Source: Candidatus Enterousia sp.
GTDB taxonomy: Bacteria > Pseudomonadota > Alphaproteobacteria > Rs-D84
Length of the DNA stretch: 64,000 nucleotides
Direction of reading: 5' to 3'
Assembly (NCBI GenBank): GCA_045546075.1
Contig: JAZQCF010000001.1
Coordinates: 79,683 to 143,682, forward strand
A model generated the notes under the pieces. That model was not told where the DNA came from. It searched no databases and worked only from the letters and a program-made list of their open reading frames with translations. A program made the position numbers and the translations under genes. Position 1 is the first letter of the stretch, and the number at the start of each line of letters is the position of its first letter. Shown one piece after another: positions 34,592-41,467 of the stretch.

Positions 34592-34667
34592 GCCGGTGTA
34601 GCTCAGTTGGTAGAGCATCTCATTCGTAATGAGGGGGTCGTAAGTTCGAGTCTTATCACCGGCACCA
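34592..34667 (+). tRNA. tRNA-Thr (anticodon CGT), CCA encoded
   Basis: GCCGGTGTAGCTCAGTTGGTAGAGC, anticodon loop TTCGTAA, T-arm GTAAGTTCGAGTCTTAT, then CACCGGCACCA. Length 76 nt. Confidence 0.92.
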
Positions 34668-34779: not shown

Positions 34780-34877
34780 TAAAATTTTTCAGTGTCGCGC
34801 CGTAGCAACATTCATATCAAGAGAAAAAATTTCACACCTGTCAGCGCAGGCGGACAGTGTCGCGCCACGTGGCGATT

Positions 34878-35435
34878 TTATCGTACTTTCTGCATCGCCA
34901 TTTTTGCTAAATAATCGGACAGTTCTGGTGAAATTGTGGCAATAGGTCTGTTTGTGCCGTGGACATCAGTTATGCTGATGTACCCTTTTCCGCGCATTCC
35001 ACCACACCAAATCGTTCCATCGGATGCAAAGTTTATTGTATAATCGCCAACACGGCAAAACTGTGGCATACGACGTTGGTGTTCTGTTTCTTCAAAAAAC
35101 ACCACAGATATCCAATCGGCAGTTTTTATTTTTTCAACAACATCACCAAGTTTTTTCGCTTCAATTTCCGAAGTTGGATAATAATCCCTTTTTGTGATAT
35201 ATCGTACAAATGCCCGGCAAGACAGTCGGTCATTATTGTGTTTTTTTACATGTTCAATAAAGTGTTTTTTATATGTTTTGAATACGGGAACCCATTTATT
35301 CAGATTATCTAAATCTGTCATATCGTCACGAAGTTTGTGTCCCGCCACAAAAATACCCGTTGCAGCCGCGACTGCATAGTCACCAAACCATGCGGCGTGT
35401 CCCAAAAAAGAATCTAATTTTTTATTATTTTTCAT
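34878..35435 (-). CDS. Hypothetical protein (185 aa)
   Basis: From the ORF track. No recognisable motif. It lies between the tRNA-Thr-linked repeats and the ileS leader. Confidence 0.5.
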   Translation of the reverse strand: MKNNKKLDSFLGHAAWFGDYAVAAATGIFVAGHKLRDDMTDLDNLNKWVPVFKTYKKHFIEHVKKHNNDRLSCRAFVRYITKRDYYPTSEIEAKKLGDVVEKIKTADWISVVFFEETEHQRRMPQFCRVGDYTINFASDGTIWCGGMRGKGYISITDVHGTNRPIATISPELSDYLAKMAMQKVR

Positions 35436-35554
35436 ATTTTACCCGTCCTTTTTTGTTTAATTTTACTATTCCATAAAAAAGGTTAGTGTCAATAATTTTA
35501 TAAAATACAATAAAATACTGGAAATTTGAAATTTTATATATTAAAGTGGTTTAT

Positions 35555-35587
35555 ATGAACAAGAAAACAATAATTATTATTATATAA
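35555..35587 (+). CDS. Candidate ileS leader peptide MNKKTIIIII (10 codons plus stop)
   Basis: ATG AAC AAG AAA ACA ATA ATT ATT ATT ATA TAA: five consecutive Ile codons directly before the stop, 76 nt upstream of the ileS ATG. Confidence 0.55.
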   Translation: MNKKTIIIII

Positions 35588-35588
35588 A

Positions 35589-35636
35589 CCGGCGGCGCGC
35601 TTTGGCGTTGGCTGGGGCGCGCATGCGCCCGTTTTT
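35589..35636 (+). promoter_or_regulatory. Candidate transcription attenuator of ileS (antiterminator/terminator alternative)
   Basis: The terminator has a GC stem (35615-35620 with 35625-35630), loop GCAT, then GTTTTT (35631-35636). GCGCGC at 35595-35600, plus 3 G:U pairs, can pair with 35614-35622 and so sequester the terminator 5' arm. Confidence 0.55.
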
Positions 35637-35662
35637 AATGATAAAAATACGGAGTAAATAAT

Positions 35663-38600
35663 ATGGCATATCCAAAAACAGAACCCAAGGCAGATTTTGT
35701 ATCGTTGGAACACGGTATAATGGAATTCTGGCGCGCCGATGATACTTTTCATAAATCTTTGAATAAAACCAAACAGGGACACCCGTTTTCGTTTTATGAC
35801 GGACCGCCCTTTGCAAATGGGTTGCCACATTGGGGACACCTTGGGGTATCTGCGGTCAAAGATATGGTATCCCGCTATCAAACAATGAAGGGGCGTTATG
35901 TGGAACGTGCCCTTGGGTGGGATTGTCACGGTCTGCCGGCAGAGGCATCGGTTGAAAAGAAACAAAAACGCACCGCCAAAGATATTGTTGCAACCGATGG
36001 TATGGCGGCGTTCTGTGATATGTGCCGGGCGGATGTTATGACGTATTCCAATGAATGGTTAAAGTTTATTGAACGCGTTGGCCGTTGGGTTGATGGTGGC
36101 GATGAATATGGTTATCGCACAATGGATAAAAACTTTATGGAATCTGTGATTTGGGCAATCAAAGAAATGCACAATCGCGGTTTATTGTATAAAGATTTCA
36201 AGGTTAATCCGTTTGATTGGAAATTGGGAACAGTTCTGTCCAACAGCGAGGCATCCAGTGAATATCAAGACGTTGTTGACGATACGGTCACGGTTTGGTT
36301 TGAATTAGAAAATGGCGACCGCGCGATTGCGTGGACAACAACGCCGTGGACATTACCGGCAAATTCTGCATTGGCGGTAAATCCAAATATGAAATATGTT
36401 CGTATGCAACACGATGATGGCCATGTATATGTTTTGGCGGAATCACGCCTGGGGGCATACGAAAAAATATTTGCAAATTCAACAAATCTTGGCACGGTTA
36501 TGGGGGCCGAATTGGTTGGAATGCGCTATACGCCGATTTTCCCGTATTACACAAATTTGGCAAATGATGGGCATGGGCTGTATACGGTGATTTCTGCCGA
36601 TTACGTGTCTGATGGCGATGGTACCGGTATCGTTCATATCGCGCCGGCATATGGTGAAGACGATTATATCGCGGCCAAGGCAATCGACCCAATGTTCCCG
36701 GTAATATTAAATGTTGATGATTATGGTAATTTTGATTCAACCGTTGCCGATTGGGCGGGCGAAAATATATTTGTTGCGAACCCAAAGATAATCGATTGGT
36801 TGCGTGCCAATGGCCGCCTTGTTAAAAAAGACCAGCACAAACACAGTTATCCGTTCGGCCCGCGCAGTAAAGAAAAATTGATATATCGTGCGACGGACGC
36901 GTGGTATATCGATGTTCCAAAAATTCGCGAACGCCTTGTTGAAATAACCAAGAACGAAACAACATGGACATCGGCGGGTAACCGATTCCTGTCCTGGATT
37001 GAAAACGCGCGCCCGTGGGGTATATCGCGCAATCGTTTCTGGGGTGTGCCATTACCGATTTGGGAACGGAACGGCGAATATAAAATCTTTGGTTCTATCA
37101 AAGAATTGGAAGAATTCTTTGGCACCAAGGTTGACGATTTGCATCGCCCAACATTGGACGCGTTGACGCGTGACGGTTGGAAACGTATCCCCGATGTTTT
37201 GGATTGTTGGTTTGAATCGGGTTCTATGCCGTTTGCGTCCCTGCACTATCCGTTCGAAAACAAAGATTTATTCGAAAAAACTTTCCCGGCCGATTATATT
37301 ATCGAAGGCCAAGACCAAACACGTGGATGGTTTTATTCACTGATGGTTGTGGCGGCGATATTGTTTGATAAACCGGCATTTCGTGTTGTGTCTGCGAACG
37401 GAATGATTGTTGATGAAAATAAACGCAAGTTTTCAAAATCGTTGGGCAATTTCGAAAATCCGGAACAACAGTTGGATACATACGGTGCGGATGCGGTTCG
37501 TTTGTTTATTTTGGGCAGTAATTTCTTAAAGGCCGAACCGGTCCCCGTTGATAAAGCGGGCAAAGTCTTTGCGGAATCTATCAAAACAATATTGACACCG
37601 CTTTGGAACGCGTATCATTTCTTTACATTGTATGCGAATGCCGGGAACATCACCGCGCGCGATGTGTGGGGTGCACCCGCCCGCAACAATTTGGATGAAT
37701 ATATATTGGCGGAAACAAATATGTTGATAAAAACGGTGGATGCCGCGTTGGCGGAATACAAACCGGATGTGGCCGTCAAAGAATTTGTTCGATTCTTGGA
37801 TGTATTGAATAATTGGTATGTGCGTCGTTCGCGTGCACGTTTCTGGGACGAAGACACCGATGCGTTTAATACGCTGTATACGGTGCTGGTTATGGTGTGT
37901 CGCGTCCTTGCACCATTTGCACCGTTCGTGGCTGAATACATCTATAAAAACCTGACTGGGGCGGAATCTGTGCATTTGACGGATTGGCCAACCACGTTTG
38001 ATGCGGATGAAAAAATCGTCACCGATATGCGCCGTGTCCAAGAAATAGTATCTGTTGGAAAACAGTTGCGCGAACAGTATAAATTGCGCAATCGTTTGCC
38101 ACTGTCTAAATTGACGGTGGCGGGTGGTGCGCCAATGGACGCATATACGAATATCATCCGTGATGAATTAAATGTGAAATCGGTTGAATGGGTTGATAGC
38201 GCATCCAAGGTCGCCGACAGTTTCATATACCTGGTGACACCAAAGATAGGTAGCCGCCTGGGGTCCGCGTTGCGTGAAATCATCCCAATGGTAAAACGCG
38301 GTGATTATGAATTGGACGGCGATAAATTGGTCGTTGGTGAATACACATTAAATGCCGATGAATTTGAAAAACGCCTTACTATACGTGACGGGGTAACGGG
38401 TATGGCATTGCCAGATAACACCGCGGTTGTCATTTTGGATACAGAATTAAATTCCGAATTGATTGCCGAAGGTTTGGCAAATGATGCATTGCGCTTTATC
38501 CAAGACACGCGTAAGGCATTGGGACTGGATGTGTCGGACCGTATAAAATTGACCTATACGGCGGATTTGGCCCTCTCTGGCGCGATTGAACAACACCGTA

Positions 38601-38713
38601 AACGTATAATGGCGGATGCGTTGATTCGTGAAATGTCGGCGGGTCCCGCAGAACACTTTACGGATGTCGAAGGTTATAACTTTGGCATTTCAATCGAACG
38701 GGTGAAACAGTAA
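35663..38713 (+). CDS. ileS: Isoleucine--tRNA ligase, type 2 (eukaryote-like)
   Basis: HIGH-type PHWGHLGV, KMSKS-type KFSKSLGN, 1016 aa, N-terminus MAYPKTEPKADFVSLEHGIMEFW. Confidence 0.96.
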   Translation: MAYPKTEPKADFVSLEHGIMEFWRADDTFHKSLNKTKQGHPFSFYDGPPFANGLPHWGHLGVSAVKDMVSRYQTMKGRYVERALGWDCHGLPAEASVEKKQKRTAKDIVATDGMAAFCDMCRADVMTYSNEWLKFIERVGRWVDGGDEYGYRTMDKNFMESVIWAIKEMHNRGLLYKDFKVNPFDWKLGTVLSNSEASSEYQDVVDDTVTVWFELENGDRAIAWTTTPWTLPANSALAVNPNMKYVRMQHDDGHVYVLAESRLGAYEKIFANSTNLGTVMGAELVGMRYTPIFPYYTNLANDGHGLYTVISADYVSDGDGTGIVHIAPAYGEDDYIAAKAIDPMFPVILNVDDYGNFDSTVADWAGENIFVANPKIIDWLRANGRLVKKDQHKHSYPFGPRSKEKLIYRATDAWYIDVPKIRERLVEITKNETTWTSAGNRFLSWIENARPWGISRNRFWGVPLPIWERNGEYKIFGSIKELEEFFGTKVDDLHRPTLDALTRDGWKRIPDVLDCWFESGSMPFASLHYPFENKDLFEKTFPADYIIEGQDQTRGWFYSLMVVAAILFDKPAFRVVSANGMIVDENKRKFSKSLGNFENPEQQLDTYGADAVRLFILGSNFLKAEPVPVDKAGKVFAESIKTILTPLWNAYHFFTLYANAGNITARDVWGAPARNNLDEYILAETNMLIKTVDAALAEYKPDVAVKEFVRFLDVLNNWYVRRSRARFWDEDTDAFNTLYTVLVMVCRVLAPFAPFVAEYIYKNLTGAESVHLTDWPTTFDADEKIVTDMRRVQEIVSVGKQLREQYKLRNRLPLSKLTVAGGAPMDAYTNIIRDELNVKSVEWVDSASKVADSFIYLVTPKIGSRLGSALREIIPMVKRGDYELDGDKLVVGEYTLNADEFEKRLTIRDGVTGMALPDNTAVVILDTELNSELIAEGLANDALRFIQDTRKALGLDVSDRIKLTYTADLALSGAIEQHRKRIMADALIREMSAGPAEHFTDVEGYNFGISIERVKQ

Positions 38714-39728: not shown

Positions 39729-39790
39729 AGAGAATAAAAAATGAAACGAATGCAAATATAATCTTTATAAAATATTAAACGGGATTCCAT

Positions 39791-39817
39791 GGGACGCCCC
39801 GTTTGCGTCCCATTTTT
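39791..39817 (+). terminator. Intrinsic terminator upstream of metG
   Basis: GGGACGC-CCCGTTT-GCGTCCC followed by ATTTTT, 28 nt before the metG ATG. Confidence 0.6.
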
Positions 39818-39844: not shown

Positions 39845-41467
39845 ATGAGTGAAAAATATCTTATAACTTCGGCATTACCATATGTGAACAATCAACTGCA
39901 TATCGGGCATTTGATTGGTTGCCTGTTGCCAAGTGATGTTTATGCGCGTTTCTGTCGTGCGCGTGGCCGAGATGTTTTGTATATTGGTGGTTCGGACGAA
40001 CACGGCACCACCAGCGAGATTGGCGCGGCACGCGAAAATATGCCCGTTGAAGAATATGTTGAAAAATATCGTGCGAAACACCTTGATGTGGTGCGCGATT
40101 TCAAATTGTCTTTTGACCATTATGGCCGCACACATACCCCGCAACAGGAAAAATTAATTCACGAATTGTTTAATCGCCTTGAATCCCAGGGTATGATAGA
40201 AGAAAAATCATCTATGCAGCCCTATTCTGTTGCCGAAAATAAATTTTTGGCGGACCGTTATGTTATTGGCACTTGTCCACGTTGTGGATATGACCGCGCG
40301 TATGGTAATGAATGTGAAAAGTGTGGTGCATCATTGGATCCGGCGGATTTGATAAACCCGCACAGTGCGATTGACCCATCGTCCCCGGTTGAAATGCGCG
40401 AAACGAAACACCTGTATTTCAAATTAAGTTCTGTAACGGATAAATTGCGCGCGTGGGTTAATTCACGCACAGGTTGGCCAAAAACGGCAACGGCGATTGC
40501 GAATAAATGGTTGGACGAAGGTTTGCACGATACACCAATTACACGTGATTTGAAATGGGGAATTCCGGTAAATAAACCGGGTTACGAAGATAAAGTTTTC
40601 TATGTTTGGTTTGATGCGCCGTGGGGATATGTTTCCATTTCGCAAATTGCAAATCCAGATTGGGCATCGTGGTGGAAAAACCCGGATTGCCATTATACAC
40701 AATTTATGGGCAAAGACAATGTATCTTTCCACGCGGTGTTTTTCCCGGCCCAGGAAATTGCGGTGAACGATAATTGGAAAACGGTTGATGTGTTAAAGGC
40801 ATTGAACTTTATGAACTTTAATGGTGCAAAAATTTCAAAATCAACCGGCAACGGAATATTCTTGGATGCGGCGTTGGAAATCGCGCCAAGTGATTGTTGG
40901 CGGTATGCCCTGCTCGCTTCGGCCCCGGAAACGGATGATACAGATTTTACAATGACGCGATTTGCAGAAATTGTGAACAAAGATTTGAATGGTTTGCTTG
41001 GCAACTTTGTGTCGCGCGCGTGTAAACTGTCGAACAAAAACTTTGGTGATACTGTGCCGGCCGGCGCCGCGATGGATGAAGATTTGGCGCACCGCATAAA
41101 TGAAAAATTGGCGGAATTGACCGGTTGCCTGGACGCGTGCGAATTCCGGAAATCGATTGTTGCACTGCGTGATATTTATGGAATTGCAAATGAATATATG
41201 ACCGCACGCGAACCGTGGGCATTGGTTAAAAACGGCGATACGGCGGGCGCGGCGGCGGTGCTGAACGAATGTTTCCAACTGATTGATTTGTTTGCACGCG
41301 TGTCTGCACCGATTATTCCGGATGCGGCGGAAAAAATTCAAAACATATTTGCCGGTGCGCATGATTTATCTTGGCCAACAATGTACGAACACAGAATCGA
41401 ATCAGGCGAAAAATTCACTGTTCCGGAAAACCTGTTCACACGGATTGAATTAAATGATGCAGAATAA
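39845..41467 (+). CDS. metG: Methionine--tRNA ligase
   Basis: HIGH region YVNNQLHIGHLIG, zinc knuckles CPRCGYD...CEKCG, KMSKS-type GAKISKSTGN, 540 aa. Confidence 0.96.
   Translation: MSEKYLITSALPYVNNQLHIGHLIGCLLPSDVYARFCRARGRDVLYIGGSDEHGTTSEIGAARENMPVEEYVEKYRAKHLDVVRDFKLSFDHYGRTHTPQQEKLIHELFNRLESQGMIEEKSSMQPYSVAENKFLADRYVIGTCPRCGYDRAYGNECEKCGASLDPADLINPHSAIDPSSPVEMRETKHLYFKLSSVTDKLRAWVNSRTGWPKTATAIANKWLDEGLHDTPITRDLKWGIPVNKPGYEDKVFYVWFDAPWGYVSISQIANPDWASWWKNPDCHYTQFMGKDNVSFHAVFFPAQEIAVNDNWKTVDVLKALNFMNFNGAKISKSTGNGIFLDAALEIAPSDCWRYALLASAPETDDTDFTMTRFAEIVNKDLNGLLGNFVSRACKLSNKNFGDTVPAGAAMDEDLAHRINEKLAELTGCLDACEFRKSIVALRDIYGIANEYMTAREPWALVKNGDTAGAAAVLNECFQLIDLFARVSAPIIPDAAEKIQNIFAGAHDLSWPTMYEHRIESGEKFTVPENLFTRIELNDAE

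Follow-up and report, generated by a model that had tools for sequence, protein, structure and literature searches.

A conserved isoleucine-codon leader and putative transcription attenuator upstream of ileS in Rs-D84 Alphaproteobacteria

Introduction

The pheM leader peptide and attenuator of the Escherichia coli pheST operon are an experimentally established case of leader-peptide control of a synthetase operon. The pheM-pheST system, which has been cited as a gamma-proteobacterial example of attenuation (PMC1262725), is the closest established system to the element described here. In both, a short leader peptide with many residues of the cognate amino acid is combined with alternative antiterminator and terminator helices, and both are placed to control a synthetase gene. 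The likeness is one of logic and parts, and no sequence homology is expected. The element studied here contains isoleucine in place of phenylalanine codons, precedes ileS in place of pheST, has a leader open reading frame (ORF) of ten codons within a unit of about 82 nt, and belongs to Alphaproteobacteria of the order Rs-D84. Its leader ORF is probably leaderless, whereas that of pheM is led by a Shine-Dalgarno sequence.

The same tandem codons, mutually exclusive helices, and intrinsic terminator are found in the leaders of the ilvGMEDA and ilvBN operons (ilvL and ivbL) and of the trp, his, thr, and leu operons. These leaders control biosynthetic operons, whereas Enterousia-type bacteria, the lineage that carries the ileS element, are reported to lack amino-acid biosynthesis pathways (PMC12306168). 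The reported loss makes a synthetase gene the natural target for a sensor of this kind.

Apart from the element described here, ileS is to our knowledge either controlled by T-boxes or not controlled at all. T-boxes precede ileS in Firmicutes, and translational T-boxes are found in Actinobacteria (PMC1262725). They resemble the present element in the gene, in the signal, which is the charging of tRNA-Ile, and in the output through an antiterminator and terminator or a sequestor. Their sensor, however, is the direct binding of uncharged tRNA and not a ribosome on a leader ORF. Classical attenuation of synthetase genes outside Enterobacteria has been predicted for Streptomyces trpS and leuS, whose leader peptides were proposed from comparative genomics without experiments (PMC1262725); they belong to another phylum and concern other amino acids. 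In Caulobacter crescentus, an 'ileS leader CDS' (CCNA_03934) is a small ORF found to be translated by ribosome profiling (Schrader et al. 2014, PMC4117421). The parts of that paper covered here mention it only as a control construct, without mechanism or sequence.

An earlier note on the DNA analysed here, made from its letters alone, had proposed a leader-peptide attenuator in front of ileS and had taken such control to be undescribed for this gene. No account of an ileS attenuator with an Ile run was found in the literature that we searched, most subscription journals being outside its coverage; given the Caulobacter 'ileS leader CDS', small ORFs before ileS are nevertheless not entirely unreported. 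A Molecular Biology paper of about 2010 from the Lyubetsky group reportedly deals with attenuation of synthetase operons and may hold a prior description. Here, we present a comparative analysis of the element. It gives good support to reading the element as a further, well-conserved example of a textbook attenuator, with an unusual target and a probable leaderless twist.

Results and discussion

Architecture of the ileS leader

The window, that is, the whole stretch of DNA that was analysed, comprises 64,000 nt of a Candidatus Enterousia sp. genome. The genome is a metagenome-assembled genome (MAG) of about 0.97 Mb (969,781 bp), which is 94% complete. The ORF downstream of the element encodes a class-I synthetase of 1016 residues, in which a domain search identifies the core (PF00133), the anticodon-binding domain (PF08264), and DUF5915. 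Its relatives in public genomes are isoleucyl-tRNA synthetases (IleRS). The closest named ileS loci are those of 'Candidatus Enterousia merdequi', of rumen and gut 'RUG' MAGs, and of KH370_54, which is an Enterousia of the order Rs-D84 (PMC12306168).

The leader ORF starts 108 nt and ends 76 nt upstream of the ileS start codon (Table 1). It reads ATG AAC AAG AAA ACA ATA ATT ATT ATT ATA TAA, base for base as given in the earlier note, and its five consecutive Ile codons lie directly before the stop codon. When both strands of the 969,781-bp genome are scanned for ATG-initiated mini-ORFs of up to about 19 codons that end, 0-2 codons before the stop, in at least four Ile codons, this is the only one. 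A single such mini-ORF, placed directly before ileS, is not a chance match. ATA accounts for 29% of the Ile codons of the genome, which rules out a role of ATA as a rare codon.

The leader ORF is followed by an all-GC hairpin of 6 bp, in which GGGCGC pairs with GCGCCC around a GCAT loop, and by G and five T residues (35631-35636). The same hairpin is present in the list of an intrinsic terminator scan, in line with the earlier identification. The alternative pairing proposed in the earlier note, between GCGCGC at 35595-35600 and 35617-35622 with three further U·G pairs, belongs to the minimum-free-energy fold of positions 35540-35662. This fold lengthens the antiterminator to 15 bp (35592-35606 paired with 35611-35626) and has a z-score of -3.75 relative to shuffled sequences. 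The gap of 26 nt between the T-run and the ileS start codon (35637-35662) contains the Shine-Dalgarno sequence and leaves no room for a promoter; therefore, all ileS transcription must cross the terminator.

A cmscan search of positions 34800-36200 at E ≤ 10 gave no T-box match, and a T-box riboswitch is thereby ruled out. The best Rfam matches in the same scan were at chance level (E ≥ 1.3), and the match to Atu_C8, which scored 18.6 bits (gathering score 50), was merely the terminator.

Table 1 Features of the ileS leader region in window coordinates.
Feature	Position	Strand	Description
ORF, 185 aa	34878-35435	-	No Pfam match; between tRNA-Thr and the ileS leader
Predicted promoter	35519-35547	+	-35 TGGAAA 35519-35524, 17-nt spacer, -10 TAAAGT 35542-35547, 7 nt to ATG; prediction
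Leader ORF	35555-35587	+	MNKKTIIIII, 10 codons and stop; direct reading; conserved
Proposed sensing codons	35570-35584	+	ATA ATT ATT ATT ATA; direct reading; conserved
Leader-ORF stop codon	35585-35587	+	
Candidate helix A	35590-35614	+	35590-35598 paired with 35605-35614; anti-antiterminator or pause hairpin
Conserved antiterminator core	35597-35620	+	35597-35606 (GCGCTTTGGC) paired with 35611-35620 (GCTGGGGCGC)
Intrinsic terminator	35615-35636	+	Stem 35615-35620 paired with 35625-35630, loop GCAT, G, TTTTT 35632-35636
ileS Shine-Dalgarno sequence	35651-35654	+	GGAG; direct reading; outside the switch helices
ileS	35663-38713	+	1016-aa long-form isoleucyl-tRNA synthetase, C-terminal DUF5915; proposed regulated gene

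Distribution of the element

The following genome counts were obtained with a covariance model of the element. Within the genus, 148 of 152 genomes contain exactly one match, and so do 14 of the 20 genomes that represent seven other genera of the same family. No match was obtained in 29 genomes from other families of the order Rs-D84, nor in 398 further Alphaproteobacteria, which cover about 300 genera. Given the latter result, the ileS leader CDS of Caulobacter is not the same element; the Caulobacter ileS is, moreover, a gene of 969 aa in a ribF...ileS-lspA context, unlike the 1016-aa ileS of the window. The element is also absent before the long-form ileS genes of Rickettsia, Oceanicaulis, Kaistia, Actinobacteria, and others. 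The four misses within the genus comprise one locus cut by a contig end, two assemblies without the 5' end of ileS, and one real loss. The conservation is thus deep, with one copy in each of about 160 species-level genomes, and the element, an uncatalogued RNA, can be used for the annotation of Rs-D84 genomes.

The covariance model and the comparison of individual loci agree in that a mini-ORF with an Ile run and a terminator hairpin precede ileS across the family. The ten-codon Ile-run ORF and two GC-rich helices are present in all of the first 24 same-genus loci compared, in which IleRS identity ranges from 70 to 86%. They also occur in L031, L033, L035, L075, and L037, the last of which has an IleRS that is only about 40% identical. 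Two further genera have diverged leaders that the model misses, encoding MTTIIIF and MSIREIIIIKI, each followed by a stop codon, a hairpin, and a T-run. Two genera of the family have no leader of any kind before ileS.

The element is always positioned upstream of ileS, or upstream of a gene for a GNAT-like acetyltransferase that is itself followed by ileS. The latter arrangement, with an acetyltransferase gene of about 180 codons between element and ileS, is found in some genera, at L034 (element at 2338-2418), L145, L149, and L150, where the Ile sensor would control a GNAT-ileS operon.

Predicted promoter and leaderless start

The predicted promoter of the window is a weak match to the consensus. 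Since the promoter scan does not list it, its assignment rests on conservation. The layout of CTGGAAAT or TTGAyT, a spacer of 16-17 nt, TAnnnT or TATAAA, 6-8 nt, and ATG is seen again in almost every one of the 49 distinct loci in which the leader is not adjacent to a tRNA gene, and L150 has better boxes (TTGACA-16-TATAAT-7-ATG). Thus, the predicted promoter precedes the leader ORF, and no further one is predicted between terminator and ileS. A -10 box located 6-8 nt before the ATG leaves no space for a Shine-Dalgarno sequence, so that the leader mRNA probably has no 5' leader or one of 1-2 nt. Translation of the leader ORF from a leaderless mRNA, probable on this layout, was not part of the earlier note.

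The CTGGAAAT motif is located at the -35 position of the ileS leader in the window (35518-35525) and in L002, L003, L007, L031, L037, L111-L117, L146, L148, and L152. It also occupies the -35 position before tRNA-Thr in L008, L018, and L033, and other species have TTGATT or TTGCAA in its place. It may represent a -35 variant typical of the clade, or else a site bound by a factor.

Antiterminator, terminator and helix A

Pairing and coding statistics were calculated from an alignment of 62 distinct sequences. The antiterminator helix was not included in the model from which this alignment was built. Nevertheless, 96% of the cells of the antiterminator core are paired, in comparison with 36-58% in slid controls, and three pairs have double changes, a result that none of 500 shuffles reached. 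The terminator stem has 94% of its cells paired, far above slid controls, and none of 500 shuffles attained its covariation score. Behind the stem, nearly all relatives have a T-run; in three of them it is degenerate (TTTATT). The terminator is located between the leader ORF and the gene and shares a strand with the alternative helix, as the sequences of attenuators do.

Two loci exhibit covariation of all three strands involved. The change of C to U in the shared arm of L007 is accompanied by changes of G to A in both of its partners, in the 5' arm of the antiterminator and in the 3' arm of the terminator. In L147, the shared G is changed to A and both partners from C to U. Such three-way covariation at a shared strand is what one expects of two functional helices that exclude each other. 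The amount of covariation is limited because both helices are highly conserved.

Candidate helix A is located between the leader ORF and the terminator. It is paired in 86% of cells and has six pairs with double changes in alignment A2, which was fitted to helix A, and it is not above shuffles in the MAFFT alignment A1. Helix A belongs to the minimum-free-energy fold of most relatives; it can coexist with the terminator but not with the antiterminator. Its counterpart in enterobacterial leaders would be the 1:2 protector or pause hairpin, and we regard helix A as a candidate with weaker support than the antiterminator and the terminator. An extension of the antiterminator by an outer helix (columns 40-44 with 79-83) was rejected, as only 66% of its cells are paired.

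Proposed mechanism and ribosome position

We interpret the element as a ribosome-mediated transcription attenuator that would set ileS transcription by the supply of charged tRNA-Ile, and assign this reading a probability of about 0.8. At the level of comparative sequence, the attenuator proposed in the earlier note is supported by the in-frame Ile-run ORF, the overlapping antiterminator and terminator, and the lack of space for an ileS-proximal promoter. From this architecture we infer the transcription start, the translation of the ORF, the ribosome footprints, the order of folding, and the response to isoleucine.

Transcription would start at the promoter with its -10 box 7 nt before the leader ATG, and translation of the ten-codon ORF would begin at or almost at the 5' end of the RNA. 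With ample Ile-tRNA, the ribosome would pass the Ile codons and reach the stop codon, where its leading edge would cover about 35597-35600, the GC-rich start of the 5' arm of the antiterminator. With the antiterminator blocked, the terminator (35615-35630) and its U-run would form, and RNA polymerase would halt 26 nt before ileS. When Ile-tRNA is scarce, owing to a lack of isoleucine or to too little IleRS activity, the ribosome would lag on the Ile codons. The free 5' arm would then allow the antiterminator core to form before the 3' arm of the terminator is made, resulting in read-through into ileS.

The earlier note had held that the ribosome geometry fits the classical model. For the window, constrained folding bears this out: the antiterminator is favoured by 2.4-4.4 kcal/mol for ribosome masks that extend no further than +9 relative to the stop codon, and the terminator is favoured by 3.5-6.3 kcal/mol when the mask ends at +12 to +15. 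The claim does not extend to most relatives, in which the unmasked fold consists of the terminator and a third helix upstream. The terminator is present in the unmasked equilibrium fold of 46 of 61 relatives, as a rule accompanied by helix A. Among the relatives, the antiterminator is less stable by about 3 kcal/mol on average and wins only for masks at +9 to +11, in 18-27 of the 61.

As the terminator with helix A is the default fold in most relatives, the switch would be kinetic, or more similar to that of trp than a two-helix model assumes. The regulatory codons of trp are located inside segment 1, whereas the Ile codons here end 5-6 nt upstream of helix A, so that a stalled ribosome would not mask this helix. 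A ribosome stalled on the first Ile codons leaves helix A unmasked, and the model therefore needs co-transcriptional kinetics. The outcome must be set by the order of synthesis, in which the antiterminator precedes the 3' arm of the terminator, by pausing, and by the exact footprint of the ribosome.

Coding constraint on the leader ORF

The fold preference of the relatives, which form the terminator at equilibrium without a ribosome, could also point to a switch that is independent of translation. The leader would then be riboswitch-like or bound by a protein, for example by IleRS acting on its own leader, and the Ile run would be a DNA element resembling a -10 box or UP element. The very strong conservation of the nucleotide sequence ATAATTATTATTAAATAA would suit this explanation, as would a promoter-like match, TGAACA-16-TATTAT, which the promoter scan lists inside the leader ORF and in which the AT-rich Ile run resembles a -10 box. 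However, promoter-like matches are no commoner in the region than in shuffled sequences (4 versus 4.2), a separate promoter is conserved at a fixed 6-8 nt before the ATG, and neither a T-box nor any other Rfam family matches the leader.

The pattern of substitutions argues further against a translation-independent switch. The first and second positions of the four aligned Ile codons are essentially invariant among the 62 distinct sequences, and the third position is T, C, or A and never G. The substitutions are thus codon-like and confined to third positions, and a -10 box would be weakened by a change of ATT to ATC. In nearly all 62 sequences, the leader ORF begins with a start codon (ATG, or GTG in a few cases), and the stop codon comes 0-2 codons past the Ile run. 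The frame is kept while codons 2-5 vary freely, with an entropy of 1.1-1.6 bits, and never become a stop codon. The encoded peptides retain the pattern M-x3-4-(T)-IIII-(K/R/E/G)-stop, with the consensus M-x3-4-T-IIII-K. A leader that acts without translation is hence improbable, and the short ORF with its tandem cognate codons has the form expected of an attenuator leader.

Leader ORFs of ileS and thrS

A second explanation retains translation and drops the amino acid. The translated ORF would gate the terminator as a general sensor of translation rate or of coupling, as in pyrBI, and would not be specific for isoleucine. The ORF is very short and probably leaderless, and any slowing of initiation or elongation would shift the ribosome relative to the polymerase; equilibrium modelling, moreover, reveals no clear geometry specific to the Ile codons in most relatives. 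Nevertheless, selection maintains three to five consecutive Ile codons across the 62 distinct sequences while other codons drift, and the target is always ileS.

The leader of thrS provides a further argument against a general rate sensor. Upstream of thrS (contig C14:13053-13112), a TTGACT-17-TATAAT promoter sequence is followed after 9 nt by the ORF MKQFLFIFTTTTTTPFGVR, which contains six consecutive Thr codons before its stop. Of 18 same-genus thrS loci, 17 have a Thr-run leader ORF upstream, as do three genomes belonging to other families of the order (L177-L196, L201). The ORF ends in a conserved CCCCnnnGGGG hairpin; no clean intrinsic terminator was seen, and a conserved TATAAT-like box is located downstream. 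The identity of the repeated codon thus tracks the synthetase, and a sensor blind to the amino acid is as improbable as the translation-independent switch. The presence of the Thr-run leader in the same genome and genus indicates that leaders with cognate codons are in use on synthetase genes in this clade.

In a genome-wide scan for mini-ORFs with runs of at least four identical residues before long ORFs, only those of ileS and thrS were convincing. A stricter scan, in which a run of at least three of one residue had to be followed by a strict terminator, missed the thrS leader that the looser scan had found. Its other matches were 3' terminators or GTGGTTAGTG-repeat elements and were rejected as attenuators.

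The tRNA-Thr gene upstream of the leader

The nearest plus-strand gene upstream of the ileS leader is that of tRNA-Thr (34592-34667), and tRNA-Thr directly precedes the leader ORF in 9 of 58 distinct loci. The one real loss of the element, in L163, has a plain terminator after tRNA-Thr in its place, and the unit from promoter to terminator would yield an RNA of 82 nt. That the hairpin is just the terminator of a tRNA-Thr unit, or of an independent gene for a small RNA or small protein, and is adjacent to ileS without regulatory meaning is nonetheless the least probable explanation. In the window, tRNA-Thr is separated from the element by a divergent 185-aa ORF, by other hairpins, and by a separate promoter. 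A plain terminator would have no use for the conserved antiterminator and its three-way covariation. As no promoter fits into the 26 nt before ileS, termination at full efficiency would shut off an essential gene. Linkage to ileS is, furthermore, kept in loci without tRNA-Thr and in those with an intervening GNAT gene.

The minus-strand 185-aa ORF intervenes between tRNA-Thr and the leader in the window and in L031. In several other species, tRNA-Thr directly abuts the leader ORF without this ORF between them.

A possible compact switch in reduced genomes

The ribosome-mediated attenuator may be considered in a more specific form, which we put forward tentatively and consider somewhat less probable than its opposite. 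The element would be an ultra-compact leaderless attenuator of about 82 nt from the transcription start to the U-run, and cognate-codon leaders would be the sole amino-acid sensors remaining in the lineage. Because the first ribosome would bind directly at the 5' AUG while the RNA is still being made, the coupling of transcription and translation would be obligatory. The leaders of ileS, with its Ile run, and thrS, with its Thr run, would form a small set, and the near-invariant order of ATA and ATT codons would sample both isoacceptors of tRNA-Ile. If this is true, obligate symbionts tune the levels of synthetases, and not biosynthesis, to the amino acids obtained from their partners.

The element is of interest as a very small natural switch, with 82 nt and a probable leaderless start, and as an attenuation mechanism placed on ileS in Alphaproteobacteria with genomes of about 1 Mb that are reportedly unable to make amino acids. 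Together, the ileS and thrS leaders suggest that, in symbionts with reduced genomes, ribosomes still serve to sense charged tRNA at synthetase genes.

Additional observations on the genome

Aragorn identifies 42 tRNA genes in the whole assembly, three of which have the anticodon CAT. It finds neither tRNA-Ile(GAT) nor tRNA-Tyr in this 94%-complete assembly; both are probably missing together with the rRNA operon of the incomplete MAG.

Arrays of GTGGTTAGTG-like repeats recur beside GC-rich terminators in contigs C1, C6, C14, C15, and C17 (for example, C17:46650-46760 and C14:37167-37262), and gave false mini-ORF matches in the genome scan.

A terminator-like hairpin, TGGGACGC...GCGTCCCA followed by TTTTT, is located at 39790-39812 of the window, 33 nt before metG (39845-41467). 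It is positioned downstream of tRNA-Val and two repeats of about 76 bp, with a mini-ORF encoding MKRMQI and a stop codon just upstream. The hairpin could be the terminator of tRNA-Val or part of another leader.
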